From Candidatus Saccharimonadales bacterium (GTDB lineage: Bacteria; Patescibacteriota; Saccharimonadia; Saccharimonadales; EFPC-124), in assembly GCA_035280845.1 (NCBI GenBank), contig DATEFB010000007.1:5778-69777 (forward strand): a stretch of 64,000 nt of DNA. Reading direction: 5' to 3'. The notes beneath the pieces are model-generated. The model had not been told where the DNA came from. It saw only the letters and a list, made by a program, of their open reading frames with translations, and did no database searches. The translations under genes and the position numbers were made by a program. Position 1 is the stretch's first letter; each line of letters starts with the position of its first letter. Shown here one piece after another: positions 6,430-62,351 of this stretch.

Positions 6430-6468
6430 CTTCGCGCCTGCCCCAATGGTGCTGGGGCAGGCGCGAAG
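6430..6468 (-). terminator. 15-bp perfect GC-rich hairpin downstream of the 6475..6804 ORF (no T-tract)
   Basis: cttcgcgcctgcccc (6430-6444) pairs perfectly with ggggcaggcgcgaag (6454-6468). Confidence 0.55.
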
Positions 6469-27078: not shown

Positions 27079-27282
27079 GACAATTTGCTCGTTTAATTTT
27101 TCCCATTATCTACCTTTAGTGAACCCGTTGCAATAGCGCCATTCGATCTATTGGCTATGCAAGATGCTTTTCATTCAAACGAACCTGTGTTAATTGTTAT
27201 TCAACCCCATGATCATTGTAAGCATCGTGAGGGCGTACCCAATCCGTTTCTCGATTCCCTCACAGAAGGGGGCCGAAAGCCC

Positions 27283-28770
27283 GTGCGTACAATTATGCGC
27301 AGGGTGGCAGTTGCTGCGACAGTGTTGTTAGCCCTTGTGGCTACCAACGCAGTCGTGGCGCCGCCCGCCTTTGCCGTAGCGATGAAGACGAACCGTGTCA
27401 TCCTGAACGGCGCAGATTGGTTGGGGGGCGACGGCGTCAACGTCTACTCCAATGATGGAAACTTCGACTCGAACATGGCCGACACTAACTATGTTAACGG
27501 AGTCCAAAGCGGCTACCGCTGGCAGTGCGTTGAGCTGGTGAACCGGCTCTACCTCACGCGCGGCTGGACAAGTACGTGGTGGTCGGGCAACGGCTATCAG
27601 ATGCTTGACAGCGCACCAGCCCACCTCGCCAAGTCAGCGAATGGCGCGATCCAGGCAATCAATCCAGGTGATGTCATCGTACTGGGTGGCGGCTGGTTAA
27701 ATTTCGGCCATGTCGCCATCGTTAGTGGCGTGACCGGGACGACAATCCATACCGTCAGCCAAAATCTCTCGACTGCGAACGATGGAGTCGGGGGTGACTT
27801 CACCTGGAACCAGTCCGCCAAGACGATCACGCCATGGTCGGGCTACTCGATGACGGGTGTCGTTCATGCTCCAAACGGCGGCGCGTCGGCTGGTAACGGT
27901 GGCACCCCACCCGGCCTCGGCTCCAAGATTGCCTCCGCCCGCCACGCAGATGGCCGCCTGGCCGTCTTCTACATCGGGGCTAACAGCGCGATTTACTACC
28001 GCAACCAGAACTCACCCGGTAGCATAGGTTGGACGTCGGAGATTCACATTCCGGCGTATGCGAAGGCAATCGCGGCAGTCACCAACGCACAAGGTCGGAT
28101 CGAGCTGTTCTACATCGGTGCCAACAATGGCCTGTATCACCGCTGGCAACCCTGGACGAATACCGACCAGTGGTCGCCCGAGGAATACTTCTCGGCCAAC
28201 ATCCGGGCAATCGCCGCAGCCAACAACGGCAACGGCATCCTGGCGGTGATCGCGGTTGGGTCGGACAACCAGTTGTACATCATGCAGCAGCCCGCGCCGA
28301 ACTCGTGGAACGGGCAATGGCACAACATCCCGGCGCAGTCCGTGGATATTGCCATGGCAACGGCGCACGACGGCCGCAACGAGCTGTTCCATGTCGGCAC
28401 CAACTACCAGACGTACCACCGCTGGGAGTGGTCACCGGGCTGCTGCTGGTCGTCGCCGGAGGAGGTCTGGGGTACGAATGTCCGCAAACTGGCCGCAACC
28501 CGCAACGCCGACGGCCGCATGGAGGTCTTCGCCATTGGCAGCAATGCCCAGATCTACAACAACTGGCAGCAACAAGCCGGTTCCAACTGGGCGAATACCT
28601 GGCCGTTGATTCCGGCTCAGGCGCGGTATATCGCGGCGGCGACCAACGTGGATGGCAGGCTGGAGATCTTCTACGTCGGAGCTAACAACTCTGTGTACCA
28701 CCGGCGGCAAACGCAAGCCGGGTGCTGCTGGGGGCCAGAGGACATCCTGCCCGCGAACGTTGCACCGTAG
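27283..28770 (+). CDS. Secreted CHAP/NlpC-P60-type amidase fused to a six-blade tectonin/tachylectin-like beta-propeller lectin
   Basis: Signal peptide 'RRVAVAATVLLALVATNAVVAPPAFA'. Catalytic Cys 'YRWQCVELVNRLY' and His 'FGHVAIVSG'. Six repeats of '(A/H)DGR.E.F.(I/V)G.N...Y.(R/N)WQ'. About 60% G+C by hand count of 28261-28320. GTG start 27283; ATG alternative at 27295. Confidence 0.75.
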   Translation: MRTIMRRVAVAATVLLALVATNAVVAPPAFAVAMKTNRVILNGADWLGGDGVNVYSNDGNFDSNMADTNYVNGVQSGYRWQCVELVNRLYLTRGWTSTWWSGNGYQMLDSAPAHLAKSANGAIQAINPGDVIVLGGGWLNFGHVAIVSGVTGTTIHTVSQNLSTANDGVGGDFTWNQSAKTITPWSGYSMTGVVHAPNGGASAGNGGTPPGLGSKIASARHADGRLAVFYIGANSAIYYRNQNSPGSIGWTSEIHIPAYAKAIAAVTNAQGRIELFYIGANNGLYHRWQPWTNTDQWSPEEYFSANIRAIAAANNGNGILAVIAVGSDNQLYIMQQPAPNSWNGQWHNIPAQSVDIAMATAHDGRNELFHVGTNYQTYHRWEWSPGCCWSSPEEVWGTNVRKLAATRNADGRMEVFAIGSNAQIYNNWQQQAGSNWANTWPLIPAQARYIAAATNVDGRLEIFYVGANNSVYHRRQTQAGCCWGPEDILPANVAP

Positions 28771-28901: not shown

Positions 28902-29059
28902 GAAAATGGCGGGCTACGTGAACGTAGCGCCGCCGGAAAGGGGCACTTATAGGGTTGCGGGCGTAGCCCTCGACCGGAGAGCTGGCCGAGGGCTACGCGT
29001 ACATGGGGACTCGCGTATTCGCGGCGTCCTGTACTGCAATCAACTATTGAGCCATTTTC
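28902..29059. other. 158-nt nested inverted-repeat element (three hairpins closed by a 9-bp helix); candidate structured RNA or island end
   Basis: Closing helix gaaaatggc (28902-10) / gccattttc (29051-59). H1 gctacg-tgaa-cgtagc (28913-28). H2 gcgtagccctcg...cgagggctacgc (28961-98, 12 bp perfect, extendable). H3 gtaca..ggac.cgcg-tatt-cgcg..gtcc-tgtac (28999-29034). Confidence 0.3.
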
Positions 29060-31197: not shown

Positions 31198-31267
31198 GAT
31201 TGACATGCTGGCAAAATTTGCCGTATGATTTGACGGTGCTCATTGTCTAGTGAGAAGGAGAGCACTC

Positions 31268-31603
31268 ATGACCCACGGTTTCAGTGGTTTCGGTGGCGGT
31301 GCCCCGCAGGGCGGTTACGACCAGCCGCTCCGCTGCCCGCGTGACAACGAACTCATGGCCAAGGTCAACGACCGGAACGCCAACGTTGTCATCGACCAGT
31401 GCCCGCGCTGCAAGGGCGTCTGGACGGACGCCGGCGAGATGGAGGCCATCGTGGCTTCCGTCACCAACGCGCCGGGCTTCCGTCCGCAGCCGAACTACGC
31501 GGCCTCCCACGGGAGCCACTCGGGTCACGGTGGTCACGGCGGCCACAACCGCCGTCACCACCGCACCAGCGACGGCATCTTCGGGAGCTTCTTCGGCTCC
31601 TGA
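31268..31603 (+). CDS. zf-TFIIB-type zinc-ribbon protein with His/Gly-rich tail (high-GC cassette C)
   Basis: SD GAAGGAG 7 nt upstream. 'LRCPRDNELMAKV...VVIDQCPRCKGVWTDAGEMEAI' matches the 'CPxC...CxxCxGxWxDxGE' zinc-ribbon family, with the first knuckle lacking its second Cys. Tail 'SHGSHSGHGGHGGHNRRHH'. Confidence 0.6.
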   Translation: MTHGFSGFGGGAPQGGYDQPLRCPRDNELMAKVNDRNANVVIDQCPRCKGVWTDAGEMEAIVASVTNAPGFRPQPNYAASHGSHSGHGGHGGHNRRHHRTSDGIFGSFFGS

Positions 31604-31779
31604 TCATCCGCGCACCGAGCGCCAACATACTGTGCGCTCAGCCCGGCCCCAGGAAGATCCTTTCCTCGGGGCCGGGCACCCCTACCATCGACCAGAAACA
31701 TACCATCATGGTAAGATAGAAGTAGTGCGAAGACACAGCCACAGAGGTGGGCTGAGCCAACATCCCGCTACAAATAATT

Positions 31780-32868
31780 ATGCGTACACGAAAGAACACC
31801 TCCGAGAAAACACGTATCGCCCTTCTTGCAGCAGCTATTGCAGTTCTGTTGCTTGTGGGCGGTTTTTTTGTCGTTAAATATATTACCTCGGGGCAGGCCG
31901 GAGGTCTATTCTCGGGCGGGAATAACCCGCTGAAAGATGTGAGCTTGTTCGTTGACCCTAACTCGAAGCCCGCTGTACAGGCAGCTGCCTGGCGCGGCAC
32001 GCAACCCGAGAACGCTGCGCTCATGGACAAACTTGCAGCCCAGCCAACAGCCCGCTGGTCAACCTATGCCGGAGATTTTGATGCCTTGAGCCAATACGTC
32101 CAGGCCGCGGCGGCTAGCAAAAAAACGCCTGTTCTAGTGAGTTACTTCTTCCCGAAGCGTGACTGTGGCCGGTATTCTACGGGCGGCGCGCGCGACGGCG
32201 AGGAGTACAAAGGTTTTATTGATGGCTTTGCCAACACAATCGGTACGGCCAGGGCAATTGTTATTCTGGAACCAGATGCGATTCCAAACATTAAAGCGCT
32301 CGACGACCAAGGCAAGCCTTGCTTGAGTGACGAAGACCAGCAGCTGTACTATTCCCTCATGGATTATGCGGTGACAACCCTTAAATCGCAGTCCAACATT
32401 AGCCTGTACATCGATGCTGGCAATAGCCAGTGGATCAAAGATACGAATGAGACCGCGAACCGCCTGAAACGCGCCAGTATTGCTAAGGCCGATGGCTTTA
32501 GCCTGAATGTTTCTAACTTTCAGACGACCGACGACACCATTGCATATGGCGAGGCTATTTCGCGTGCCATCGACGGCAAGCATTTTGTGATCGATACTTC
32601 GCGCAACGGCAATGGCCCATTCACGAACCCGGCGTACCCATCGCACGGTTGGTGCAACCCGCCAGACCGTGCGCTTGGCCACTATCCAACTACCCAAACC
32701 GGGCATGGATCTGTCGATGCGTATTTGTACATTAAACGACCGGGTGAATCCGACGGTGCTGACGCTGATCCCCAGAAATGTTTCGGTGGTCCCAAGGCAG
32801 GTGATTGGTGGCCAGACTACGCTGCTGGCTTAGTTGCCCGCTGGCCAAAAGAATTGCAGCCGAACTAA
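31780..32868 (+). CDS. Membrane-anchored glycoside hydrolase family 6 (beta-1,4-glucanase, CslZ-like)
   Basis: N-terminal TM 'IALLAAAIAVLLLVGGFFVV'. GH6 signatures 'FFPKRDCG', 'ILEPDAIPN', 'YIDAGNSQW', 'FSLNVSNF', 'FVIDTSRNGNG', 'YLYIKRPGESDG'. Confidence 0.85.
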   Translation: MRTRKNTSEKTRIALLAAAIAVLLLVGGFFVVKYITSGQAGGLFSGGNNPLKDVSLFVDPNSKPAVQAAAWRGTQPENAALMDKLAAQPTARWSTYAGDFDALSQYVQAAAASKKTPVLVSYFFPKRDCGRYSTGGARDGEEYKGFIDGFANTIGTARAIVILEPDAIPNIKALDDQGKPCLSDEDQQLYYSLMDYAVTTLKSQSNISLYIDAGNSQWIKDTNETANRLKRASIAKADGFSLNVSNFQTTDDTIAYGEAISRAIDGKHFVIDTSRNGNGPFTNPAYPSHGWCNPPDRALGHYPTTQTGHGSVDAYLYIKRPGESDGADADPQKCFGGPKAGDWWPDYAAGLVARWPKELQPN

Positions 32869-41355: not shown

Positions 41356-42540
41356 TCATCCCTTTTTGCCGAATGTGCCCAGCCGGTACAGACGGACTAC
41401 CGCCATGCCAGCGGCTAGTGTGCAGAGTCCCCCGGTTGCCAGGAGGCCAAGGCGCAGGCCGCCAGTATCTACTGCCATGCCAGCGAGTGGACCAACGATC
41501 GTAAACGACAGCCGTTGCAGCAGGTTGACTCCGCTGTTGAGCGTCGCACGATGAGTGCTATGCATATGGCCATTCAACCAGCTCATAATGGCAGGGCCCT
41601 GCAGTGCGTGCACGATTTCGTGCCCAAGCACCAGCAGCAACAGCCACCAGTTACCGCTGGCCATCCCGGCAAATCCGAATGCGCCCAATGCGACGTACAG
41701 AGTCATGTAGCGCCCCATGTTCTGTTTGGGGTGGAACCAGTGCGACCAGGCTGCTTTCCAAAGGTTGCGGGCAGCCAGAATCGCGGCAAACAGCGCCACC
41801 GGGATCCCCATGTTCACATAGACTGGCGTTGCCAGCCAGGCGCCCATGTAGGTACAGGTACTGAGTGACACATACAGCACTAGTAGCCAGCGGACCTCTC
41901 GGCTGCCAAGTAGCATGCGCAGAGCTTTTGGTGCAGGCACGACTTCCTCGTGGGCAGACGTGACGAGTGGGGCCTCCTTAAGGCGCAGGACAAAGATCAG
42001 CCCGATTCCGGTCAATAGCCCGTCGGCAATGAACGTTGCGCCAAGACCGACATTATGCGCCAGCCACATCGCCAGTGGCAGGCAGATAACCGGTGCGGCA
42101 AACCCATAGGCGTTCATACGCTTGGTCGCGCGCTCGGCGGCCTGTTGGTGCTCGGCAGGAGTCTGACCCGGCTTGTGCAGCGAGTCGTACAGCAGTGCGG
42201 AGTCGGCGCCGCTGATCAAGCCATTGGCCAGCGCGAGCCCCAGCTCCCATACAACGAACTGCCAGAACTGGTCGCTCAGGCCATATCCGATCATGGAAAC
42301 CACTACAACCGGTGCGCTCAGTTTAATGCACAGGGCGCGGCCAATCTTGTCGGCAATATAGCCGCTCGGCAACTCCCACAGCAGCACAGCCAGCGAGAAG
42401 ATTGATTGCAGCGCAAAAATCTCGGTCTGGTTGAGGCCGTTGTGCATGAAGAACGGTGCCAGGAAGGCGGTCGACACCGAAAGTGTTTTAAACGGCGCAA
42501 ACCGTAGCAACCACTTGGGGTTGTCGCGGTAGGTGTGCAT
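41356..42540 (-). CDS. MFS transporter
   Basis: 394 aa from ATG 42540 (AAGGAG upstream), ~12 helices, 'LPSGYIADKIGR' loop 2-3 motif. Confidence 0.75.
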   Translation of the reverse strand: MHTYRDNPKWLLRFAPFKTLSVSTAFLAPFFMHNGLNQTEIFALQSIFSLAVLLWELPSGYIADKIGRALCIKLSAPVVVVSMIGYGLSDQFWQFVVWELGLALANGLISGADSALLYDSLHKPGQTPAEHQQAAERATKRMNAYGFAAPVICLPLAMWLAHNVGLGATFIADGLLTGIGLIFVLRLKEAPLVTSAHEEVVPAPKALRMLLGSREVRWLLVLYVSLSTCTYMGAWLATPVYVNMGIPVALFAAILAARNLWKAAWSHWFHPKQNMGRYMTLYVALGAFGFAGMASGNWWLLLLVLGHEIVHALQGPAIMSWLNGHMHSTHRATLNSGVNLLQRLSFTIVGPLAGMAVDTGGLRLGLLATGGLCTLAAGMAVVRLYRLGTFGKKG

Positions 42541-42666
42541 TGCGCGCTCCTTCTTAAAGTTGATGACGTGTGGGTCTGGTTTCCCAGAACCCGATCCGCC
42601 TCCGAAAATATAAAAACGTCTCCGCATTTCGGAGACGTATCATGACCTATGAAATAAAGTGTAAGT

Positions 42667-49134: not shown

Positions 49135-51996
49135 ATGAAACGATACAATCCCGCCGATATTGAACCAAAATGGCAAAAGGTCTGGGAAGACCAGCAAACA
49201 TACAAAGCCGACAACACCAGTAAAAAGAAACCATATTACGCGCTGAGCATGTTTCCATACCCAAGTGGTATTGGACTGCACATTGGCCACGCACGCATTT
49301 ATAGCACCACTGATGTGTTGGCACGTTTTATGCGCATGCAGGGGTACGAAGTGATGCAGCCATTTGGCTGGGACAGCTTTGGTTTGCCCGCCGAGAATTA
49401 TGCAATTAAAACCGGTACGCCGCCACAAGTTGTGACTAAGCAAAATACCGACAACTTTCGTACGCAGGCCAAGCATTTAGGCCTGTCGATTGACTGGTCG
49501 CGCGAATTTGCCAGCACCGACCCCGACTATTACCGCTGGACCCAGTGGTTTTTCCTGCTGCTGCACAGGCGTGGCTTAGCCTACCAAAAAGAGAGCGCCC
49601 AGTTTTGGTGCAATGAATGTAAAACCGTACTGGCAAACGAACAGGTTGTAAACGGGTGCTGCTGGCGCCACGAAGACAAGCCGGTAACCAAGAAGACCCT
49701 GAAGCAATGGTTCTTTAAAATTACCGATTATGCCGATCGTCTGGAAGCTGACTTGGACCAAGTTGACTGGCCGGAAGGCATTAAAAGTATGCAGCGCAAT
49801 TGGATTGGCCGCAGCAAGGGCGCCGAGGTGGACTTTGCAGTTGATGGCAGGGACGAGACCATTAAAATCTTCACCACACGAGCTGACACGTTATTTGGTG
49901 CCGCCTTTATGGTGCTGGCTCCCGAGCACGAGCTTGCCCGAACCATTACAACTCCCGAAAAGCTGCGTGACGTTGACATGTATATAAAGCAGGCCGAGAC
50001 CAAAACCGACATCGACCGCATGGACGAAGGCCAAGATAAATCCGGTGTCTTTACGGGCGCCTACGCAATCAACCCGGTGAATGGCGAGAAGATTCCAGTC
50101 TGGATCGCCGATTTTGTTTTGGGTGGATACGGCACTGGCGCTATTTTTGCAGATGCCCACGACAGCCGCGACGTTGCGTTTGCTCGCCAACACAACATTG
50201 CGCTCAAAGACACTATTGAACCCGAAACCGGCACGCCTCAACAAAACCCCGAATTCCGCCGCAGCATCGTTGCCATTGTGCGTAACCATAAGACCGGTGA
50301 AGTCTTAACGATTAACTGGGGCAAAATGGGCGGCAGCCTGTTTGTAGGTGGTGGCCGTGATGACGAAGAAGACATAATCGCCTGTGCCGAGCGCGAGATC
50401 CGCGAAGAAACCGGCTACACCAACATCCGCTTCGTAGCAAAAACAGGCACGATCCACCACAACTACTTTGCGGCAAGCAAGAACGTCGCCCGACGCATCG
50501 AGGCGCATGGTTTATTGTTCGATTTAGTCGACGAATCGCGCCAGGAAGCAAAGCTCGAAGCTGACGAACAGGGCAAATTCACTGTTGAATGGCTGCCTCA
50601 GAACGAAGTCGAATCCAAAGTGCGCGATGAGCTGCACGCTTTGGTCTTTACCCGCCTGGTCAAGAACGAGGCCTACACCGGCGAAGGCATTTTGGTTGAT
50701 TCGGGTAAGTACAGCGGCATGCGCAGCAGCGAAGCCCGCGAGCACATTGTTGCCGACCTAGAGGCGCAAGGCGTGGGCAAAGAGCGAGTCAACTACAAGA
50801 TCCGCGATTGGCTGATCAGCCGTCAGCGCTATTGGGGTGCGCCAATTCCAATCATCCACTGCCCGAAAGACGGCATTGTGCCTGTGCCCGAAGACCAGCT
50901 GCCCGTGCAATTACCCGAATTAAAAGAATTCCAACCTTCGGGTGATGGCCGGTCGCCACTGGCAAATGTCCGCGACTGGGTAGAGGTTGCATGCCCAACG
51001 TGTGGCGGTCCAGCCGAGCGCGAAACTGACACTATGGATGGTTTTGCCTGCAGCAGCTGGTACTTCCTGCGATTTGCTGACCCTAAAAACAATAGCGAAC
51101 CATTCAGCCGCGAACTGGCCGAAAAATGGCTGCCCGTGAACACCTACGTTGGTGGTGCTGAGCACGCGGTTATGCATTTGCTGTACGCTCGCATGTGGAC
51201 AAAAGTCATGTTCGACGAAGGCATGATAAGCTTCCAGGAACCGTTTACTGCATTGCGCAGCCAGGGAATGTTGCTGGCTCCAGACGGCGGCAAGTTTAGT
51301 AAGAGTAAAGGCAACGGCGTAGATCCCGAAGACGTTATTAATAGCGGATACGGGGCGGATGCGCTGCGCACGGTACTGATGTTCCTGGCGCCATTCGACC
51401 AAAAAACGCCGTGGAGCCCAGAAGCACTGGGTGGCGTGTACCGTTTCTTAAACCGCATCTGGACCATTGCTCAAGAGGTTGACGAAAAAGCGAAGGGCTC
51501 CGATCAAAGCGACGACCTGCGTCGTTCGGTGCACAAAGCCATTAAAAAAGTTACCGAAGACATGCAACAGATGGGCTTTAACACCGCCATTGCCGCCGTC
51601 ATGGAGTTGGTCAACGAGCTGTACAAGCATGCCAAGACTCAGGACATGGCGCAGTATGGCGATGACTGGCGCTGGGCAATAAAAACAACCGCGCAGCTTA
51701 TTGCGCCCTGTGCCCCGCATTTGGCCGAGGAGTTGTGGCAGCAGTTTGGCGGCGAGGGCTCGGTGGCGGTCAGTGAATGGCCTCACTTCGACAAAGCATT
51801 GCTAGTCGCTTCGACCATTACCATTGTGGTGCAGGTGAATGGTAAGATTCGCGCAAAGTTAGAGATGCCTGCGCAGGCATCGGAGGCTGATGTAAAGTCT
51901 GCGGCTTTGGCAGACGACCATGTTAGGCAGTTTGTGTCCGGCGATCCTAAGAAGGTCATTTACGTACCCGGCAAATTACTGAGTATTGTGGTTTAG
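49135..51996 (+). CDS. leuS: Leucyl-tRNA synthetase with an inserted Nudix domain (about residues 362-512)
   Basis: 953 aa. 'PYPSGIGLHIGH' (HIGH), editing domain 'TTRADTLFGA' and 'AHDSRD', 'RDWLISRQRYWGAPIP', 'KFSKSKGN' (KMSKS). Extra segment with a perfect Nudix box 'GGRDDEEDIIACAEREIREETGY'. Confidence 0.95.
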   Translation: MKRYNPADIEPKWQKVWEDQQTYKADNTSKKKPYYALSMFPYPSGIGLHIGHARIYSTTDVLARFMRMQGYEVMQPFGWDSFGLPAENYAIKTGTPPQVVTKQNTDNFRTQAKHLGLSIDWSREFASTDPDYYRWTQWFFLLLHRRGLAYQKESAQFWCNECKTVLANEQVVNGCCWRHEDKPVTKKTLKQWFFKITDYADRLEADLDQVDWPEGIKSMQRNWIGRSKGAEVDFAVDGRDETIKIFTTRADTLFGAAFMVLAPEHELARTITTPEKLRDVDMYIKQAETKTDIDRMDEGQDKSGVFTGAYAINPVNGEKIPVWIADFVLGGYGTGAIFADAHDSRDVAFARQHNIALKDTIEPETGTPQQNPEFRRSIVAIVRNHKTGEVLTINWGKMGGSLFVGGGRDDEEDIIACAEREIREETGYTNIRFVAKTGTIHHNYFAASKNVARRIEAHGLLFDLVDESRQEAKLEADEQGKFTVEWLPQNEVESKVRDELHALVFTRLVKNEAYTGEGILVDSGKYSGMRSSEAREHIVADLEAQGVGKERVNYKIRDWLISRQRYWGAPIPIIHCPKDGIVPVPEDQLPVQLPELKEFQPSGDGRSPLANVRDWVEVACPTCGGPAERETDTMDGFACSSWYFLRFADPKNNSEPFSRELAEKWLPVNTYVGGAEHAVMHLLYARMWTKVMFDEGMISFQEPFTALRSQGMLLAPDGGKFSKSKGNGVDPEDVINSGYGADALRTVLMFLAPFDQKTPWSPEALGGVYRFLNRIWTIAQEVDEKAKGSDQSDDLRRSVHKAIKKVTEDMQQMGFNTAIAAVMELVNELYKHAKTQDMAQYGDDWRWAIKTTAQLIAPCAPHLAEELWQQFGGEGSVAVSEWPHFDKALLVASTITIVVQVNGKIRAKLEMPAQASEADVKSAALADDHVRQFVSGDPKKVIYVPGKLLSIVV

Positions 51997-52051
51997 AGTG
52001 CAAAAGGCGGCACCCGGGTGAGCCCGGGGCCGCCTCGCATCTTGCAACCCG

Positions 52052-52597
52052 TCAATGTGCCAGCATGACACCACGCATGGCCGGCTGTTCCTGGAATGCC
52101 GCGACGAGCGATTCGACATCGCTCGTCGACAGCTCAGTGGCAGCCGTCAGACGCTCCACATATTCGGGGTTGGGGCCGCTTGCGACCAGTCCGCCCAGGG
52201 CTTCCCATTCGGCCAGGTCCAGATCGGGCACGGGCACCAGCGGTCGATGGCGCCGGTGCATGTCGTCGAGGTGGTCGAGGATGGTGATCGGCTGGCCTTG
52301 CGGCGAGTACGGTCCCCACTCATTCAGGATCCGAAGCCGCAGGCCTTCTGCGACGTCAGTCGCTCCGAGCCTGGCCAGCGCCGTGAAGACGCCAGTCGCG
52401 GTAGTGCGGTAGTCGAGCGTGCTGCTGTAGTAGGCGGGCCAGGGCCGCTCGTCGTCCCGCGGCTTGGTGAGTGTGGCCTCGGTCTCGGCGAACTTGTTCA
52501 GGGTCCGCAGGGCGAGGTACCACAACTCCCTTATGCGGTTGATGCGCATCCGTTCCTTGTGGGCGGCAATCGCGTCTGCGTCGGGCTCTCGGCTCAT
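52052..52597 (-). CDS. Hypothetical cytosolic protein (high-GC cassette D)
   Basis: 181 aa from ATG 52597 (AAGGGAG upstream). Third codon positions are overwhelmingly G/C in this frame, which argues for it over the antisense ORF. A GC-rich hairpin lies at about 52003-52035. Confidence 0.55.
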   Translation of the reverse strand: MSREPDADAIAAHKERMRINRIRELWYLALRTLNKFAETEATLTKPRDDERPWPAYYSSTLDYRTTATGVFTALARLGATDVAEGLRLRILNEWGPYSPQGQPITILDHLDDMHRRHRPLVPVPDLDLAEWEALGGLVASGPNPEYVERLTAATELSTSDVESLVAAFQEQPAMRGVMLAH

Positions 52598-52737
52598 CGG
52601 TACTCCCTTAGTCGGGTGCAAAATACGTATATACTATAAAATATTATATGACATACCACAATAACCATTGCGAGTTTCAAGTAGTTACGCTATAATTACG
52701 CTCAAGTAAATACAGATAAACAAAGGAGGCTTTCTTT

Positions 52738-54589: not shown

Positions 54590-54694
54590 ACGCCATTCTG
54601 GCCCCTTGCGGTGAACCTCATTGACAACAGAGGCGATACCCTGTAAAATTGCCAAGAGTTTAACACTACAGTTTAATAAAGGAATTTTTGTTAC

Positions 54695-55078
54695 ATGCTC
54701 GCAATTCGTTTGCAACGTCATGGCCGTAAAGCAGCTCCGGTTTACCGCGTGGCTGTTCAAGAAGCCCAACGACACCCCAGCAGCGGCCGTGTTGTCGCCT
54801 ATGTGGGTGCCTATAACCCTCACACTAAAGAATCTAAAATCGACGCAGAAAAAGTCGAATTCTACCTTAAGAATGGTGCACAACCAAGCCCTCGCGTAGT
54901 GCGTTTGCTCGAAGAAGCCAAGGTGAACCTGCCAGCTTGGGTAAAATCTACCCGCACCGACAAAGCTGCAAAACTGCGCAATCCAGACAAGCTGCGTAAG
55001 AACCAGCCAAAAGAAGAAGCTCCTGCAGAGGCACCAGCCGACGAAGCAGCTCCAGCAGAAGAAAAAACCGAAGAATAA
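54695..55078 (+). CDS. rpsP: 30S ribosomal protein S16 with a Lys/Ala/Glu/Pro-rich C-terminal extension
   Basis: 'MLAIRLQRHGRKAAPVYRVAVQEAQ..PSSGRVVAYVGAYNP'. Confidence 0.9.
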   Translation: MLAIRLQRHGRKAAPVYRVAVQEAQRHPSSGRVVAYVGAYNPHTKESKIDAEKVEFYLKNGAQPSPRVVRLLEEAKVNLPAWVKSTRTDKAAKLRNPDKLRKNQPKEEAPAEAPADEAAPAEEKTEE

Positions 55079-55120
55079 AAAAGAGCACCTCGCATCAGCG
55101 GGGTGTTTTTATTGTCGGAT

Positions 55121-55165
55121 TGGGGTGTCCCCCGGGTTGCAGCGATAAGCTCTGCTGCAACCCGG
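55121..55165 (-). terminator. 13-bp GC-rich hairpin downstream of the alpha-CTD-like ORF
   Basis: ccccgggttgcag ... ctgcaacccgggg is a perfect inverted repeat, 23 nt past the stop at 55188. Confidence 0.55.
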
Positions 55166-55187
55166 GGAGACCGGTTTGTGGAGCCGG

Positions 55188-55625
55188 TCAGGCGGCGAGC
55201 GCCGGGACGGCGTCCTCCTTCAGCTTGAGCCGGGCGTCGAGCGCGGCGAGCTTGGGGACGATGTCCAGGTCGATGGTCCGCTGACCGATGCCCTTGATGC
55301 CCAGCAGGTCGGCCTCGCTGAGGTCGATGAGCTGGCCCACCGTGTGGATGCCGGCCTTCTTGAGGGCGTTGTAGGGCCGGATGCCCAGCTTGACGTCCTC
55401 GATCGTCTGCGCGCGCAGGTTCTCCAGCGGGACGACGGTCGGCGTCTGGCCCGTGGTGCTGGCGCGCGCGATCCGCGAGATGCCCTTGCTGGGGCTGGCG
55501 GTGTTGCCGACCGGGGTCTTGTTGAGGGACCGCTTGGTGGCCGGCGGGGGCACGATGCCGTTGCGCAGGTTGCGCGCCTTCTTGCGGCGCTGGTTGCGGC
55601 GACGGTCGGCCAGGGTCATACGCAT
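55188..55625 (-). CDS. Stand-alone RNA polymerase alpha-subunit C-terminal-domain (alpha-CTD, HhH) like protein with a basic N-terminus (high-GC cassette E)
   Basis: 'IEDVKLGIRPYNALKKAGIHTVGQLIDLSEADLLGIKGIGQRTIDLDIVPKL' parallels the RpoA CTD 'LELSVRSxNCLKRxGIxTxGELxxxxExxLLxIxNxGxKSxxEIKxxL'. N-terminus 'RRRNQRRKKARNLRN'. SD GGAGG. 69 G+C in 55201-55300 by hand count. TTGCAT-17-TATTAT in the AT-rich flank. Confidence 0.7.
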   Translation of the reverse strand: MRMTLADRRRNQRRKKARNLRNGIVPPPATKRSLNKTPVGNTASPSKGISRIARASTTGQTPTVVPLENLRAQTIEDVKLGIRPYNALKKAGIHTVGQLIDLSEADLLGIKGIGQRTIDLDIVPKLAALDARLKLKEDAVPALAA

Positions 55626-55779
55626 AACTTACCTCCGGAAGGAGACGGTCTGAGATGACTAAAAAATATAATACCACAAATATTGTTATAATGCAAGCAT
55701 TTTGTTACCACGAGCAGTTTGCGTGTGCCCGGCATCCTACGCTACAATGTCTGTATCAGGTAATCGTAAGGGAGACTGT

Positions 55780-56214
55780 ATGACCAGTATTGACCAACAG
55801 TTTGTGGAGTTCATTGTAAAATCGCTTGTCAGCAAACCAGAGGCAGTTACCATCGAGCGCCGCATTGATGAAAAAGGCGTATTGCTTGAACTGACCGTTG
55901 ACCCCGAAGACCTTGGCCGCGTTATTGGCAAGCGGGGTGCAACCGCTCAGAGCGTGCGTACATTGCTCCGCGCCCTTGGTACAAAGAATGACGCACGGTA
56001 CAACTTGAAAATCGTTGATGTTGACCGCCCAGGCGGCGTTTCGACTGACGGCTCAGATGATCCTGCAGTGGCCGACGACGAAGATACTACCCCATTAAGT
56101 GCTGCTCCAAGCAAGCCTGTGGAAGAAACAACAGAGAAGCCTGTGGAAGAAAAAGAATCAGTAGCAAGTCGGACCAGAAAAGAACTTGCAGATATGGATG
56201 ATCTCGACATATAA
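55780..56214 (+). CDS. KH-domain RNA-binding protein (YlqC/KhpA-like) with acidic C-terminal extension
   Basis: 'FVEFIVKSLVSKPEAVTIERRIDEKGVLLELTVDPEDLGRVIGKRGATAQSVRTLLRA'. AAGGGAG SD. Confidence 0.8.
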   Translation: MTSIDQQFVEFIVKSLVSKPEAVTIERRIDEKGVLLELTVDPEDLGRVIGKRGATAQSVRTLLRALGTKNDARYNLKIVDVDRPGGVSTDGSDDPAVADDEDTTPLSAAPSKPVEETTEKPVEEKESVASRTRKELADMDDLDI

Positions 56215-56310
56215 TAAAACTAAGTTCGAAAGATCGAACAGCAAAAACAAAAAGAAAAGCTCGTGCGAGCAAAGAGGGATTTTATCCCAAATTGAGAGCT
56301 TTATGTGGCG

Positions 56311-56340
56311 AAACAACCCTCCATTGCGGGGGTTGTTTTG
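56311..56340 (+). terminator. Intrinsic terminator after the KH-domain gene
   Basis: aaacaaccctc-cattgc-gggggttgttt followed by T-tract. Confidence 0.8.
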
Positions 56341-56414
56341 TATCTGAAAGAAATAATAACAAGAGTTGGACTGACGCCCGCACCCGACGTCGTTGGCGGG
56401 TGCGGGCGGCAGGT

Positions 56415-56759
56415 TCAGCAGATGAAGCGCGCGGCCTCGGCGGCGATGGCTCTCATCCTGATTGGAACGTCCTCGGGGACTCCGTGCAGGATGTAGACAT
56501 CGATTGTGCAGTTCCAGACCAGGCCGTGCGACGGCGCGTCGTAGCGGCCCTCTGGCGCCCTTGTCGGGTCGGACCACAGGTAGGCGAGGTGTTCGAACGC
56601 CCTGAGCGCAGCAGCATCCTCTGTGGTCGCCTCATCGGCGACAGTTTCGGTATCCACTCCCAGCTCGGCGCAAATGCGCAACTGGATGAGCTGGTAGATT
56701 GCCGGGGTCGGACGTGTTGCTTGCTGAAGGGCGGCGTCTGTCGTGGCGAACGGTGTCAC
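56415..56759 (-). CDS. Hypothetical protein (high-GC cassette F)
   Basis: 115 aa from GTG 56759 (GAAGGAG upstream; TTGAAA-17-TATAGT further up). G/C-rich third positions. 11-bp GC hairpin cgcccgcaccc/gggtgcgggcg lies just past the stop (about 56375-56410). Confidence 0.45.
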   Translation of the reverse strand: MTPFATTDAALQQATRPTPAIYQLIQLRICAELGVDTETVADEATTEDAAALRAFEHLAYLWSDPTRAPEGRYDAPSHGLVWNCTIDVYILHGVPEDVPIRMRAIAAEAARFIC

Positions 56760-56868
56760 GGGACTCCTTCTGCTTGGCGTATACACATGCTGTGCGTACG
56801 GCTTCACTACTATAAAATGTAAGTCGTAACTTTTCAATATGCGCTTCAGCCCGTATAATCAGAAACAT

Positions 56869-57531
56869 ATGAAACCCAGGCTTATTCAGGTCATTACGCT
56901 TTTCCCCGAGATGTTCGACGGTGTGTTCGGCGCGAGCATGCTTTGGAAGGCTCAGGACCGCGACATTGTAAAGTTCGCGGCTATTAATTTGCGTGAATAT
57001 GGCCTTGGCCCCCGGCATCAGGTAGATGATACTCCGTACGGCGGTGGCGATGGCATGTTGCTGAAACCCGAGCCACTTTTTGCTGCAGTAGAGGCCGCCA
57101 AAAAGAATGACCCCGATGCCCAGGTGCTCCTTATGACGCCACGCGGCGAACGCTGGGTGCAGGCCAAGGCGCAAGAAATGGCCGACGATGGCCGGGGCCT
57201 GATTATTATCTGTAGCCGTTACGAGGGCTACGATGAGCGTATTACTACTATTGTTGACCGCCAGCTTTCGATTGGCGATTACGTCCTGACCGGAGGTGAA
57301 CTTGCTGCTATGGTTGTCGTAGATAGCGTTACCCGTTTGATTCCGGGCGTATTGGGCGGTGAAACCAGCGCCGAGATTGAAAGCTTCAGCGATGGTGAGA
57401 CCCTTGAGTTCCCTCAGTACACCCGTCCTGCTGATTTTCGCGGCATGAAAGTCCCTGATGTTCTTTTGAGCGGAAATCACGCTCAAATTCTTGCATGGCG
57501 CAAAGATAATTCTCCAAAAATACAGCCCTAA
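56869..57531 (+). CDS. trmD: tRNA (guanine37-N1)-methyltransferase
   Basis: 'VITLFPEMF', 'DDTPYGGGDGMLLKPEP', 'IICSRYEGYDERI', 'SIGDYVLTGGELAAMVVVDSVTRLIPGVLG'. Confidence 0.9.
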   Translation: MKPRLIQVITLFPEMFDGVFGASMLWKAQDRDIVKFAAINLREYGLGPRHQVDDTPYGGGDGMLLKPEPLFAAVEAAKKNDPDAQVLLMTPRGERWVQAKAQEMADDGRGLIIICSRYEGYDERITTIVDRQLSIGDYVLTGGELAAMVVVDSVTRLIPGVLGGETSAEIESFSDGETLEFPQYTRPADFRGMKVPDVLLSGNHAQILAWRKDNSPKIQP

Positions 57532-57814
57532 TTAAAAAACTTCCCGAACAGGAAGCGTGCCGTTAAGGGCCAGGGCAAGGGGTAGTTTCGCAAATACATT
57601 GCTACTTGTACCACTTGCCGTGGCATAGAAGAGTTGTTGTGGTGGAACAAAAGCGATCCAGACTTTTTATTTTTCGTGGTGTTTGTTCGTACAGTTTCGC
57701 TTAAGGATATCGTACTTTGTTATTTCGGTAAGCGCAAGCTCTTTAGCGCAAAATTACAACACAAGCGTTTTTGGCCAAGGGAGTATAATAAGAGAAGCTT
57801 AACGGAGACCGACA

Positions 57815-58228
57815 ATGGGGTTATTCACTAAATTCATTAAACCTGTGTATGCTCACTGCGATGTTCCGTGCGGCATCTACGAAACTGACACAATGCGCCA
57901 CGCTGCCGACACCTGCCTAAAGATGATCGAGAAAATCGAAGCCTTACCAGATGAAATGGGTGAGAAGTCGGCCGACCACAACAACTACATCCGCATGGTC
58001 ATGACCAAAGAAAAGCACGCCCAGCTGTGTAAAGAGCAGATTTATCTTTTATGGAGCGATTACTTTAAGCCTGAGCACCTGCAAAAGTTCCCCGACCTGC
58101 ACGACACTATGTGGCAAGCGGCCAAGCAGTGCGGTAAGGTTAAGCAAACCGTCAGCCGTGAAGAAGTGCAGAAACTTATTGACCAAGTAGCAACAATATC
58201 TAAGGTTTTTGAGGAATCGCACCACTAA
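57815..58228 (+). CDS. sodN: Nickel superoxide dismutase precursor
   Basis: Pro-peptide 'MGLFTKFIKPVYA' followed by the Ni-hook 'HCDVPCGIY'. Confidence 0.9.
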   Translation: MGLFTKFIKPVYAHCDVPCGIYETDTMRHAADTCLKMIEKIEALPDEMGEKSADHNNYIRMVMTKEKHAQLCKEQIYLLWSDYFKPEHLQKFPDLHDTMWQAAKQCGKVKQTVSREEVQKLIDQVATISKVFEESHH

Positions 58229-58508
58229 GATGTTTCTTATACGGCGCGTCGAAGGTTTAAGCATGGCTCCTGCATATCCACACGGTAAAATCGTGTTTGC
58301 GTGGCGTCGTAAGGTGGCGCGGGTGGGTGATGTGGTGATTGTGCAGCACCATAAAATGGAGCTTATTAAGCGTGTTGGCCAGATCTCGAATGAAGGGGTG
58401 TACGTTGTTGGCGACAACCCAGACAACAGCACCGACAGCCGGCATTATGGCTGGTTGCCGCTTGGCTCTATAATAGGCGTTGTAATAGGGGGACAGGCCC
58501 GTGATTAA
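58209..58508 (+). CDS. sodX: S26-family NiSOD maturation peptidase
   Basis: 'GLSMAPAYPHG' (catalytic Ser), 'GDVVIVQH...ELIKRV', 'GDNPDNSTDSRHYG'. Overlaps the sodN 3' end. Confidence 0.75.
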   Translation: MRNRTTKMFLIRRVEGLSMAPAYPHGKIVFAWRRKVARVGDVVIVQHHKMELIKRVGQISNEGVYVVGDNPDNSTDSRHYGWLPLGSIIGVVIGGQARD

Positions 58509-58935
58509 ACCAAAACCGACACCGGCTCCAGACGTAGAGAATAAAAAACTCGTCGTCGTTTCGTACGCATATATGGCGGCGGTCATTGGTGTTTCGGTGT
58601 GGCAGCTGGTGATGTTCGAGAAGTTTGCGCCATGGCTTGGCGAGTATCTGGGCAACGGGGTTACGCCCGAAGTGACTCTGTTGGCAATTGCACTCATCGG
58701 CGCACAGGTGTTCTCGCTACCATTCCTGCTTCGGCTGTCATTGAGCCCGCTTGCCCGGCTGGCAAGCGCACTGTTGGCATTCCTGGCGCCAGTGGCCTGG
58801 GCTGTTGTGGCAATTGCTGGCCCTGGATTTACCATGAGATACTTTGTCTTCACAGTAATGGTATTGTTGTGGGCTGGGGCAAGTTTCTGGCTTCTTGGCG
58901 GACCTAAAGTGCTGCGACTAAAGAAGAGGTCATGA
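58501..58935 (+). CDS. Small four-helix membrane protein
   Basis: GTG start overlapping the sodX end. Hydrophobic throughout. Confidence 0.45.
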   Translation: MIKPKPTPAPDVENKKLVVVSYAYMAAVIGVSVWQLVMFEKFAPWLGEYLGNGVTPEVTLLAIALIGAQVFSLPFLLRLSLSPLARLASALLAFLAPVAWAVVAIAGPGFTMRYFVFTVMVLLWAGASFWLLGGPKVLRLKKRS

Positions 58936-61829: not shown

Positions 61830-62300
61830 GTGTTGGAGAGTACATTGCCCGGAGTGTGGCACATCCAAGGCACTCACGAGAACATGCGGCTGGCGTTCCA
61901 CGACAACCGCACCTGGTACCTGGGCGGAACAAAAAGCCCGGCAATGAGTGGTACCTGGGAGACGACCTATGCTGGAGTGACGATGCGCGCGACGCAGGTC
62001 GGCTCTGCTGCTGGGCGTGGGCTTGCCATTGCGGCCGCCGGTCTGGTGCTCGGCCTGTCACTGGGCACTGCGGTGGTTGTTGCGCCTGCGGTGATCGCGG
62101 GCATCGTGGCATCGAACGCCCAGCGGGAGGGGAATCCTGGCCCCTTCGCCACGTTTGGCCGGTTCGATGTCTTCACTGGCAGGGCTGTGGCGGAGTACCA
62201 GCTCGTGACAGAGTCGCACTACCAGGTCGTCATGCGGTGCGACTTCCGGAACGGCAGTTACTCCGATACTCACCTCGCCACGCTTACCCGCGTGGCCTGA
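61830..62300 (+). CDS. Hypothetical protein with a central Ala/Gly/Val-rich TM hairpin (high-GC cassette G)
   Basis: GTG start with AGGAGG 5 nt upstream. 156 aa. 'GLAIAAAGLVLGLSLGTAVVVAPAVIAGIVA'. Followed by a 12-bp hairpin plus T5. Confidence 0.5.
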   Translation: MLESTLPGVWHIQGTHENMRLAFHDNRTWYLGGTKSPAMSGTWETTYAGVTMRATQVGSAAGRGLAIAAAGLVLGLSLGTAVVVAPAVIAGIVASNAQREGNPGPFATFGRFDVFTGRAVAEYQLVTESHYQVVMRCDFRNGSYSDTHLATLTRVA

Positions 62301-62305
62301 TCAGT

Positions 62306-62351
62306 GGCAAGTGCCGACCCGCGTTATGGGATCGGCACTTGCCCAGTTTTT
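62306..62351 (+). terminator. Intrinsic terminator
   Basis: ggcaagtgccga ... tcggcacttgcc (12 bp perfect) followed by cagTTTTT. Confidence 0.8.

Follow-up and report, generated by a model that had tools for sequence, protein, structure and literature searches.

Small antisense genes of high GC3 in the rpsP–KH–trmD region of a soil Saccharimonadales genome

Gene content and regulatory-like elements of the locus

The window, by which we mean the whole 64-kb stretch of DNA that was analyzed, originates from a soil Saccharimonadales genome and includes the gene string leuS–nusB–nudix–rnc–rpsP–KH–trmD–sodN (Table 1). The genes for rpsP, the KhpA-type KH protein and trmD are co-oriented and keep the canonical order (Pfam, NCBIfam), and the TrmD proteins of relatives are likewise 220 aa long. 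Small minus-strand genes occupy three gaps of the string, here named slot Z (leuS–nusB), slot A (rpsP–KH), and slot B (KH–trmD); slot C is the spacer between trmD and sodN. A second sample (ERZ27257108) yielded an identical arrangement in an independent assembly, and the arrangement is thus not an assembly chimera.

Table 1. Coordinates of genes and sequence elements in the string, in window positions.
Feature	Position	Strand	Details
Slot Z gene (leuS–nusB gap)	52052..52621	-	189 aa; GC3 0.79; no known relatives outside clade
rpsP promoter-like site	54621-54649	+	TTGACA-17-TAAAAT; consensus scan
rpsP (ribosomal protein S16)	54695..55078	+	127 aa, acidic Ala/Pro-rich tail; PF00886 53 bits, TIGR00002 71 bits
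rpsP canonical terminator	55086..55112	+	hairpin CACCTCGC/GCGGGGTG, then T-run; read from sequence
Slot A 3' hairpin	55130..55167	-	GC-rich, 14-bp perfect, CCCCGGGTTGCAGC / GCTGCAACCCGGGG, without T-run
Slot A gene (rpsP–KH gap)	55188..55625	-	145 aa, basic; GC 0.70, GC3 0.97
Slot A SD	55633-55637	-	GGAGG; read from sequence
Slot A promoter-like site	55668..55696	-	TTGCAT-17-TATTAT; by eye, absent from consensus-scan list
KH promoter-like site	55719..55748	+	TTGCGT-18-TACAAT; read from sequence; both hexamer regions conserved vs. L083
KhpA-type KH-domain gene	55780..56214	+	144 aa, acidic tail; PF13083 (KH_KhpA-B) 77 bits, NF001748
KH canonical terminator	56318..56342	+	hairpin and T-run
Slot B hairpin	56371..56412	-	GC-rich, 16-nt, 94% complementary, no T-run, directly 3' of gene
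Slot B gene (KH–trmD gap)	56415..56759	-	114 aa, GTG start, SD AAGGAG; GC 0.64, GC3 0.76
Back-to-back promoter-like sites	56809..56859		TTGAAA-17-TATAGT (slot B, -); TTTTCA-17-TATAAT (trmD, +)
trmD	56869..57531	+	220 aa from ATG 56869, ORF open from 56839; NF000648 271 bits
Slot C (trmD–sodN spacer)	57532..57814		283 bp, empty in window
sodN (Ni superoxide dismutase)	57815..58228	+	TIGR02753 137 bits; followed by short S24/S26 peptidase

With terminator-like hairpins after rpsP and KH and promoter-like sites before each gene, the core genes have the appearance of individual transcription units; the earlier note had given each member its own promoter-like and terminator elements, for which the support consists of consensus matches and hairpins read from the sequence. 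The rpsP terminator is kept in the related locus L083, and equivalent hairpins occur in L129 and L136. Of the slot genes, only those of slots A and B could be assigned promoter-like hexamers, and the slot A site lies within an AT-rich stretch that also contains the divergent KH promoter. The GC-rich, T-less hairpins of the slot genes directly adjoin the canonical terminator belonging to the core gene upstream; an imperfect GC-rich hairpin (~52006-52036) also lies after the slot Z gene. The slot A hairpin is likely the terminator of its gene: in an alignment of seven relatives, 94% of cells are paired and compensatory changes occur in 7 of the 14 pairs, values that none of 500 shuffles reached. 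Each slot gene in the window, with an SD site, an ORF of raised GC3 and a long GC-rich T-less hairpin, looks like an autonomous unit.

Against the window baseline (median GC3 0.587, robust standard deviation 0.03), the slot A and slot B genes stand out strongly, far more than chance would allow; atypical base composition, as used in recognizing genomic islands, is present in both, and the earlier note's observation of two minus-strand genes of atypical composition at consecutive junctions is borne out. High GC3 is also found elsewhere in the window, in a Zn-ribbon gene (31250-31603; GC3 0.84) with a syntenic orthologue of GC3 0.90 in L128, where the flank is 0.61. A nearby gene at 58501-58935 is fast-evolving, with 44% identity to its L129 counterpart.

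Conservation of the gene string and the absence of rimM and rplS

The trmD operon has the order rpsP–rimM–trmD–rplS in E. coli and rpsP–khpA/ylqC–rimM–trmD–rplS in Firmicutes. The string resembles this operon in that rpsP, a KhpA-type KH gene and trmD are co-oriented and follow one another as in the operon, but the locus of Saccharibacteria differs in being without rimM and rplS, in having promoter- and terminator-like elements for each gene, and in the antisense genes in between. This difference holds across Saccharibacteria, and thus represents a phylum-level variant rather than a local disruption. The order leuS–nusB–nudix–rnc–rpsP–KH–trmD is common to ~90 Saccharibacteria loci; rpsP is adjacent to KH in 93 of the 133 loci fetched, KH is adjacent to trmD in 92 of the 133, and sodN follows trmD within 2.5 kb in 23. 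The median KH–trmD gap across loci is 598 bp, so that the gap of ~650 bp in the window is typical; 25 relatives have a hit-to-hit gap of <300 bp.

Searches with E. coli RplS (tblastn) gave no match in the window or near trmD in any Saccharibacteria locus, matches being limited to two non-Saccharibacteria positive controls (L114 and L115) at 53% identity. For rimM, tblastn with a RimM query that is itself insensitive gave no match in the window, and in ~90 Saccharibacteria loci the KH–trmD gap showed no gene resembling rimM, the plus-strand ORFs of relatives being judged by eye. In the window, this gap contains just one gene, on the minus strand, for which relatives are known only within the clade. 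As regards a fused or renamed rimM, which the earlier note had allowed for, Pfam gave no RimM or PRC domain in the KH, slot B and TrmD proteins of the window. Because neither gene was seen at the locus in ~90 Saccharibacteria loci, we infer that the absence of rimM and rplS here is an ancestral feature of the lineage and not a local event. The earlier note was thus right that both genes are absent from the locus, but the missing genes should not be read as the disruption of a former operon, since rpsP–KH–trmD is the normal gene order of the lineage.

A recent origin of the antisense genes, as two foreign single-gene cassettes inserted into an intact rpsP–KH–rimM–trmD–rplS operon with displacement of rimM and rplS, would be in keeping with their extremely atypical GC3 (0.97 and 0.76 vs. 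0.59), with the foreign-looking terminators that lack a T-run, and with the small number of homologues. Such insertions are nevertheless highly improbable, given that the same slots are filled by homologous or analogous antisense genes in L083, L129, L131-L136 and JGI contigs, at a synonymous divergence that has reached saturation; neither an integrase nor direct repeats or target duplications were observed, and the ~90 loci with neither a rimM-like gene in the slot nor rplS near trmD provide no intact operon of this kind.

Slot genes and their divergence among relatives

Antisense genes of high GC3 are present in the same gaps in L083, L129, L131, L132, L133 and L136, as well as in the JGI contigs for P0002 and P0003, in which the genes in the same slot have the same lengths. 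The leuS–nusB gap of relatives is occupied by other antisense high-GC3 genes. Slot C, described in the earlier note as 283 bp of non-coding DNA and indeed empty in the window, holds one or two such genes in L129, L132, L133 and L136. The earlier note had regarded an arrangement shared by relatives at uniform GC as evidence against its reading; the arrangement is shared, but the GC is not uniform.

The slot A proteins form a variable family in which, as judged from the aligned members, a conserved N-terminus rich in Arg is followed by a linker of low complexity and a helix-hairpin-helix domain resembling the alpha-CTD. In the window protein these correspond to an N-terminal helix (residues 5-21), a disordered linker (35-62), and an (HhH)2 domain (67-130), followed by a C-terminus ending in ...PALAA. 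The alpha-CTD-like nature of this gene, as proposed earlier, is confirmed by a match to RNA_pol_A_CTD (PF03118) of 51.6 bits (cut-off 23.8); the L083 and L131 homologues score 57.4 and 53.5 bits, respectively, and the L129 and L136 proteins have no Pfam match. The AF2 model (pLDDT 70.7 overall, 83-87 over the domain) superposes in Foldseek on the alpha-CTD of Streptomyces coelicolor (7vpd_S; TMt 0.94, rmsd 0.7 Å, 49% identity over 57 residues) and on 3k4g_A (rmsd 0.9). The N-terminal motif is kept in 7 of 9 family proteins. The window protein retains what we take to be the equivalents of R265, N268 and G296 of E. coli alpha; the DNA-binding Arg equivalent to R265 persists in the proteins of the window, P0002, P0003 and L083 alone, and its loss from L131, L129, L132 and L136 makes a common DNA-binding mode doubtful. 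The sole PADLOC match is the HhH segment of PglW (18.7 bits); slot A has no match in PHROG and no relative in IMG/VR. Assignment as a full RpoA was rejected, because the match covers only model positions 235-310, at 51 bits vs. an equivalog cut-off of 434.

No family matches were obtained for the remaining slots (B, C and Z); slot Z was searched against Pfam, NCBIfam, PHROG and PADLOC. For slot B, a 140-aa version of the ORF with a TTG start is less likely than the 114-aa form. A search of 5.8 billion proteins with slot B returned one match, its own cluster, which includes P0188 and P0189 at 90-91% identity; its homologue in the same slot of L131 is 49% identical and has a normal GC3 of 0.56. 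The AF2 model of slot B is unusable (pLDDT 43), and no fold or family was detectable.

Across seven related contigs, core genes are 79-100% identical and gap genes 19-50%; in species-level comparisons, RNase III is 79-100% identical vs. 19-49% for slot A. Between the window and L129, DNA identity is 75-95% in core genes and drops to 40-50% exactly across three islands. The divergence extends to close strains: between the window and P0002, rnc is 99%, slot B 91% and slot A 45% identical, and between P0002 and P0003, which co-occur in one sample, rnc is 100% and slot A 69% identical. Slot proteins evolve 10-50 times faster than their neighbors, with dN/dS of ~0.2-1.1 vs. 0.01-0.05, and are kept as ORFs across relatives in which synonymous sites are saturated (core dS 1.2 or more). 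For slots B and C, dN/dS is 0.2-0.56; the value near 1 for slot A is inflated, because Nei-Gojobori dS is underestimated under extreme codon bias.

That the GC-rich segments might instead act as structured spacers or insulators, or encode antisense RNAs, with the ORFs as by-products of high GC, is suggested by the tendency of high-GC DNA to yield long ORFs on both strands, by the dN/dS of slot A, and by the lack of family matches for the other slots. We consider it very unlikely, because the GC3>GC1>GC2 pattern selects the minus-strand frame, the SD motifs are correctly spaced, the alpha-CTD domain is kept in the window, L083 and L131 and the N-terminal motif in most slot A proteins, and ORF lengths are held at 30-50% identity, with the dN/dS of slots B and C as above. 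Rapid variation generated by DGR hypermutation, or by cassette switching through a site-specific recombinase, is still less probable and can practically be set aside: DGRs are reported to be common in CPR bacteria, slot A has a conserved N-terminus and a variable remainder, and strain-level polymorphism is present, but the 64-kb window contains no diverged copy of any island that could serve as a template, the slot A divergence includes indels and extends beyond a short 3' block, no reverse transcriptase or recombinase lies beside the slots in the locus gene tables, and the close pair L132/L133 differs by an ordinary amount (95% identity, dN/dS 0.36).

Origin and possible role of the alpha-CTD-like protein

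We regard it as probable that the locus represents a lineage-wide gene string, the gaps of which are fixed slots with resident, fast-evolving antisense genes, and that the slot A domain is of actinobacterial derivation. In this clade, the slots house small opposite-strand genes as residents, and the alpha-CTD part was probably captured from an actinobacterial rpoA, or from a phage or plasmid of Actinobacteria. Saccharibacteria live as obligate epibionts on Actinobacteria, by means of molecules that are still poorly known. Actinobacteria are the hosts on which cultured Saccharibacteria grow (PMC11659515, PMC7784981, PMC11880426).

The one lead towards a donor is a domain-level affinity to actinobacterial RpoA, with no repeats and no full-length homologues outside the clade; for no slot gene was a homologue found in Actinobacteria, phages or plasmids. 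Within a comparison set that left out the Saccharimonadales' own RpoA, the best PDB sequence matches of the window slot A protein are actinobacterial RpoA chains (49.3 vs. 40.1 bits for the best non-actinobacterial match), and the L131 homologue, the best-preserved member, scores 61.9 bits with Mycobacterium smegmatis, 60.4 with M. tuberculosis and 58.4 with S. coelicolor, vs. 42.5 for the best non-actinobacterial chain, i.e., 15-19 bits above any other lineage, linker and C-terminal tail included. NCBIfam NF003514 is the top match for slot A of the window, L083, P0002, P0003 and L131; an S. coelicolor fragment scores far highest on it (138 vs. 88 bits), which we take to mean that it is an actinobacterial rpoA model. 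As in actinobacterial RpoA alpha-CTDs (PDB 7vpd, 5tw1, 5uh5), the slot A domain scores above the Pfam cut-off and its predicted fold superposes. Unlike RpoA, the protein is free-standing without the alpha N-terminal domain, carries a helix rich in Arg at the N-terminus together with a disordered linker, varies between strains, and in several members has lost the R265 equivalent.

The affinity of L131 also counts against a home-grown origin, in which the slot A domain would be a duplicated 3' end of the organism's own rpoA and a local process, such as GC-biased gene conversion at polymorphic loci that recombine often, or selection on transcripts, rather than foreign ancestry, would account for the GC richness of all slot genes. 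An ongoing force of this kind fits better than a decaying import with the high GC3 that outlasts synonymous saturation in orthologues (0.78-0.97 for slot A across seven genomes; also in the Zn-ribbon gene and its L128 orthologue), and alleles differ among strains co-occurring in one sample, in bacteria that are reported to be naturally competent. Fast change by itself, however, does not lift GC3, as the L129 counterpart of the fast-evolving gene at 58501-58935 has a GC3 of only 0.43, and the slot B orthologue of L131 is of normal composition. On balance, a home-grown origin is unlikely.

The persistence of high GC3 counts against our preferred explanation as well: for an acquisition that preceded the split of these lineages, with core dS saturated, neutral amelioration should have erased values of 0.8-0.97. 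That weakly constrained single genes hold such values in a genome of ~0.59, despite saturated synonymous sites, is a puzzle that conflicts with simple amelioration, and makes the slot genes usable for testing GC-biased gene conversion or selection on composition in ultra-small bacteria.

Under the reading of resident slot genes with an actinobacterial-derived slot A domain, slot A, as a free alpha-CTD, may compete for DNA or for activators that bind the alpha-CTD, whether within the epibiont or, on a more speculative view, within the actinobacterial host; an arms race between host and parasite would account for its rapid diversification. A variable, free-standing alpha-CTD of actinobacterial type at a fixed locus is thus a concrete candidate, amenable to testing, for a decoy in transcription or a factor that mimics the host. 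The C-terminal ...LAA suggests turnover dependent on ClpX, and convergent transcription against growth-related core genes may tie slot-gene expression inversely to growth. A more elaborate proposal, which we consider doubtful at best, is that the clade keeps single-gene units with actinobacterial-style codons and T-less hairpins as host-interaction factors, that slot A is an alpha-CTD mimic directed at the actinobacterial host, titrating activators or UP-element DNA, and that host-like composition is held by refreshing, conversion or selection. No secretion signal or evidence of delivery was found for the slot genes.

A possible analogy is offered by flexible genomic islets of the replacement type, and by the mimic effectors that intracellular parasites have derived from their hosts, such as the eukaryote-like proteins of Legionella, in that very divergent alleles occupy a fixed locus in similar genomes and a domain resembles the host lineage. 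The slot islets differ in that each consists of one gene of 100-190 aa, which invariably runs antisense to the core genes and has a persistently high GC3. Slot A is also similar in size to the stand-alone alpha-CTD proteins of phages in BFVD (105-150 aa; e.g., Mycobacterium phage Mithril, Rhodococcus phage Finch, and the Bacillus phage Goe8 'RNA polymerase subunit alpha') and shares their single-domain fold, but is only 18-34% identical to them, with no Foldseek E-value <=0.001, and resides at a fixed chromosomal slot of a cellular genome.

Gene order at the rpsP–trmD locus

The window is a portion of a 72-kb contig from a soil Candidatus Saccharimonadales MAG (ENA ERZ27257114 k141_1243579), and an identical arrangement is present in a second, independently assembled sample (ERZ27257108); the proteins at this locus are HKX72823–HKX72828. 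An earlier note had described this locus as an rpsP–KH–trmD operon that was interrupted twice by foreign antisense genes and lacked rimM and rplS. The genes that it named (rpsP, an alpha-CTD-like gene, a KH gene, trmD and sodN) were recovered by profile searches. The two antisense genes, termed here the slot A gene (rpsP–KH gap) and the slot B gene (KH–trmD gap), have a third-codon-position GC content (GC3) of 0.97 and 0.76, vs. a window median of 0.587 (robust sd 0.03); both are strong compositional outliers, and the atypical composition that had been reported for them is therefore confirmed. An assembly chimera was rejected because relatives and independent assemblies concur.

Features of the window: core genes, small high-GC3 genes and the GC-rich hairpins that follow them
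Feature	Position	Strand	Basis or remark
rpsP	54695–55078	+	profile search
ORF with RNA_pol_A_CTD domain, 145 aa (slot A)	55188–55625	−	profile search
KH gene, KhpA-type	55780–56214	+	profile search
Unannotatable ORF (slot B)	56415–56759	−	no profile match
trmD	56869–57531	+	profile search
sodN	57815–58228	+	profile search; 283 non-coding bases between trmD and sodN
Slot Z gene (leuS–nusB gap)	52052–52621	−	
GC-rich hairpin after slot A gene	55130–55167		
GC-rich hairpin after slot B gene	56371–56412		
GC-rich hairpin after slot Z gene	~52006–52036		
High-GC3 gene	6475–6804	−	GC-rich hairpin 6430–6468
High-GC3 gene (Zn_ribbon_TFIIB protein)	31250–31603	+	GC-rich hairpin 31641–31678
High-GC3 gene	61830–62300	+	GC-rich hairpin 62306–62343

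Related loci (n = 133) were drawn from GTDB genomes, JGI metagenomes and assemblies. The KH gene follows rpsP in 93 of them, and trmD follows the KH gene in 92; leuS–nusB–nudix–rnc usually lies upstream of rpsP, and in 23 loci sodN and a gene for a small S24/S26 peptidase lie downstream of trmD. With E. coli L19 as the query, rplS matches in these loci were confined to two non-Saccharibacteria controls (L114 and L115). The hit-to-hit distance between the KH gene and trmD is <300 bp in 25 loci; judged by eye, the plus-strand ORFs in this gap in relatives include GNAT-like, CPBP-like and inositol-monophosphatase-like genes, and none is RimM-like. In the window, neither the KH protein nor TrmD carries an additional Pfam domain. 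Taken together, these comparisons argue that the absence of rimM and rplS is a property of the gene order of the phylum, not of the window locus. Local loss of the two genes by disruption is thus not borne out, as related loci show the same gene order: the anatomy described as a disrupted operon stands, but the history read from it does not. The KH–trmD gap of the window (~650 bp) is typical (median 598 bp), and gene-sized rpsP–KH gaps are found in fewer loci (>500 bp in 14/93).

Two further features of the core genes were observed. The leucyl-tRNA synthetase (49135–51996) has a NUDIX domain (residues 375–494; 42 bits, cut-off 21) that immediately follows the editing domain, and the same Pfam pattern, including NUDIX, occurs in LeuRS of relatives L129, L132, L133 and L136. 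A small S24/S26-type peptidase gene follows sodN with a short overlap (57815–58508 for the two), and the pair looks like a Ni-SOD and its maturation protease.

Antisense genes in the slots of relatives

In a 426-kb contig (L083), whose S16 is 85% identical to that of the window, the rpsP–KH slot contains an alpha-CTD gene that is antisense and of high GC, together with a second, weakly alpha-CTD-like gene; further antisense GC-rich genes lie after the KH gene and in the leuS–nusB gap. Closer relatives (L129, a 625-kb scaffold; L131; L132–L135; and L136) were reached via the 90% cluster of the window RNase III. Their common layout is leuS, slot Z, a conserved 55-aa ORF, nusB–nudix–rnc–rpsP, slot A, KH, slot B, trmD, a further slot (slot C) that is filled or empty, and sodN. 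All slot genes tabulated in L083, L129, L131, L132, L133 and L136 are on the opposite strand, with GC3 of 0.66–0.97 (a single exception has 0.56), vs. 0.41–0.61 for core genes of the same six relatives. DNA identity between the window and L129 is 75–95% over core genes, and the drop to 40–50% coincides exactly with the three islands. At the trmD–sodN spacer, which is empty in the window, L129 carries an additional island of ~600 bp. The slots of relatives are therefore occupied too, and the reading of the antisense genes as recent foreign insertions does not hold; relatives share the arrangement, but not a uniform GC content. The locus has a conserved architecture in which fast-evolving, compositionally aberrant antisense genes are interleaved with core genes. 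These genes always converge on highly expressed growth genes, and an antisense orientation so constant hints at a possible role in insulation or in inverse coupling to growth.

GC-rich islands of the slot A kind can mislead gene callers. In L131, the automatic call at 1382–2440 joins the KH gene to a spurious plus-strand ORF across the slot A island (a “352-aa KH protein”), and the true slot A gene occupies 1388–1849 of the minus strand (GC3 0.97). A second family of rpsP–KH slot genes, of normal GC and ~157 aa, is present at L083 7101–7577 (−) and L084 3806–4279 (−); the two members are 26% identical (E 1e-12), and their C-terminus is weakly alpha-CTD/HhH-like.

Among the window and its relatives, core genes have saturated dS (~1.2 to >2.5) and dN/dS of 0.01–0.09, and slot genes have dN of 0.44–0.71 and dN/dS of 0.2–1.1. 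Since core dS is saturated and core dN/dS is low, most slot-gene divergence would fit ordinary in-place evolution under weak constraint, with no need for hypermutation; on the same grounds, hypermutation or allele swapping was toned down as an explanation for all slot genes. The sole slot divergence that still looks excessive is that of slot A in the near-identical backgrounds of homologues P0002 and P0003, which were assigned to JGI 3300078620 contigs by agreement of contig and gene lengths. The RNase III of both contigs is 99% identical to that of the window, and the slot B protein of the P0002 contig is 91% identical to its window counterpart, vs. only 44–45% for the slot A proteins; between P0002 and P0003, from one sample, RNase III is identical and the slot A proteins are 69% identical. 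Either diversifying selection or replacement of alleles is the probable source of this short-range divergence. No diversity-generating retroelement (DGR) or template repeat for the slot genes was found in the 64-kb window.

The slot B protein (114 aa) is predicted to be all-helical; its AF2 model is unusable (pLDDT 43) and gave no fold, and profile and protein-set searches returned no family and no homologue beyond the clade. In L129, L133 and L136, the KH–trmD slot contains a different family.

The slot A protein and its affinities

The slot A family comprises nine proteins (window, P0002, P0003, L131, L129, L132, L133, L136 and L083). An N-terminal motif, MR(M/R)xLADRRRxQRxxKAR..R.G, is present in 7/9, and the L131 and L083 proteins retain only its arginine-rich character; in the window protein, AF2 models the motif as a confident helix (pLDDT ~90). 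There follows a variable-length linker rich in Ala, Pro, Thr and Lys, then a helix-hairpin-helix domain that scores above the Pfam alpha-CTD cut-off in the window, L083 and L131. The AF2 model of the window protein fits onto solved alpha-CTDs, most closely onto the Streptomyces coelicolor chain (TMt 0.94, rmsd 0.7 Å, 49% identity). By our own comparison with E. coli alpha, the equivalents of R265, N268 and G296 are kept in the window protein. Several relatives have lost the arginine equivalent to R265, and so a DNA-binding mode common to the family is doubtful.

The C-termini of five members (55188–55202 in the window; P0002, P0003, L131 and L129) end in LAA or PAA (as ALAA, TLAA or QPAA). These ends resemble the ssrA/ClpX C-terminal degron, which suggests that the protein may be unstable. 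As a free alpha-CTD, the slot A protein might act as a competitor of RNA polymerase, either for UP-like DNA or for the activators that bind the alpha-CTD.

Against RpoA chains, the window protein scores 49.3 bits with S. coelicolor, 43–44 with Mycobacterium, ≤40 with Firmicutes and 25 with E. coli. The best-preserved member, L131, scores 61.9 with M. smegmatis, 60.4 with M. tuberculosis and 58.4 with S. coelicolor (best non-actinobacterial chain, 42.5), and its alignment to actinobacterial RpoA continues past the domain on both sides, into the linker between the domains and into the tail. The NCBIfam sub-model NF003514, on which an S. coelicolor fragment scores far highest (138 vs. 88 bits), also ranks first for the proteins of the window, L083, P0002, P0003 and L131, by a margin of 15 bits in L131. 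Given this affinity and the GC3 of 0.97, capture from an actinobacterial rpoA or an actinobacterial mobile element is the most likely origin, as judged against RpoA chains of Actinobacteria, Firmicutes and E. coli; the organism's own rpoA is in none of the fetched loci, nor in the 5.8 kb that precede the window on its contig. In culture, the only organisms on which Saccharibacteria grow are Actinobacteria (PMC11659515, PMC7784981), and one wastewater relative parasitizes the mycolate bacterium Gordonia (PMC11880426). The slot A product is alpha-CTD-like, varies between genomes and shows affinity to the phylum of the hosts.

No collection searched contained a full-length slot A relative outside the clade. 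Searches of a 5.8-billion-protein set with slot A, slot B and the Zn-ribbon island returned clade members only, and an HMM search of 1.84 billion representatives added only multi-repeat alpha-CTD proteins, in clusters without taxonomy. By tblastn, slot A gave only generic alpha-CTD matches in phages, slot B gave none there, and slots B and Z gave none in plasmids; IMG/VR scans found no slot-gene homologues, and PHROGs and PADLOC scans of the slot genes yielded nothing useful. Phages, actinophages among them, also encode small free-standing alpha-CTD proteins, but these resemble slot A only distantly. We found no literature account of such islands, or of a free alpha-CTD, in Saccharibacteria.

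Hairpins, promoter-like sites and persistence of high GC3

Downstream of each small high-GC gene of the window lies a long, GC-rich hairpin that lacks a T-run, whereas the rpsP and KH terminators are canonical (hairpin plus T-run). In seven relatives, 94% of cells of the slot A hairpin are paired, and 7/14 pairs show compensatory double changes, values reached in 0/500 shuffles; the hairpin is thus conserved in structure, not in sequence. The GC-rich segment reaches from the 5′ UTR as far as the hairpin. The promoter-like hexamers are found in AT-rich DNA that also contains the next core gene's promoter, in a back-to-back arrangement: TTGCAT-17-TATTAT, identified by eye, for slot A, and a pair at 56809–56859 for slot B with trmD. 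Shine–Dalgarno motifs precede the starts of both slot A and slot B.

Orthologous slot genes, such as slot A, keep a GC3 of 0.8–0.97 over saturated divergence. This conflicts with neutral amelioration, which should have erased the excess. Rapid evolution alone is not the cause, because the gene at 58501–58935 (144 aa, no Pfam match) shares only 44% identity with a counterpart in L129 that has a GC3 of 0.43. The excess might stem from biased gene conversion at polymorphic loci, from selection that acts on the transcript, or from repeated renewal out of a GC-rich pool.

Outside the slots, the three remaining high-GC3 genes of the table are single and small (GC3 0.75–0.85); two are co-oriented with their neighbors, and high GC3 therefore does not depend on being antisense. 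Syntenic orthologues of the Zn-ribbon gene (P0155 and L128) keep a GC3 of 0.90 (flank 0.61 in L128) and the same hairpin stem. Moderately raised GC3 also occurs in larger genes, at 27151–28770 (539-aa CHAP plus FG-GAP-like protein; 0.73) and 41356–42627 (MFS transporter; 0.70), and there is a GC-rich hairpin at 28961–28998. The gene at 31780–32868 encodes a glycoside hydrolase of family 6 (cellulase-type; 221 bits), in the genome of an ultra-small epibiont.
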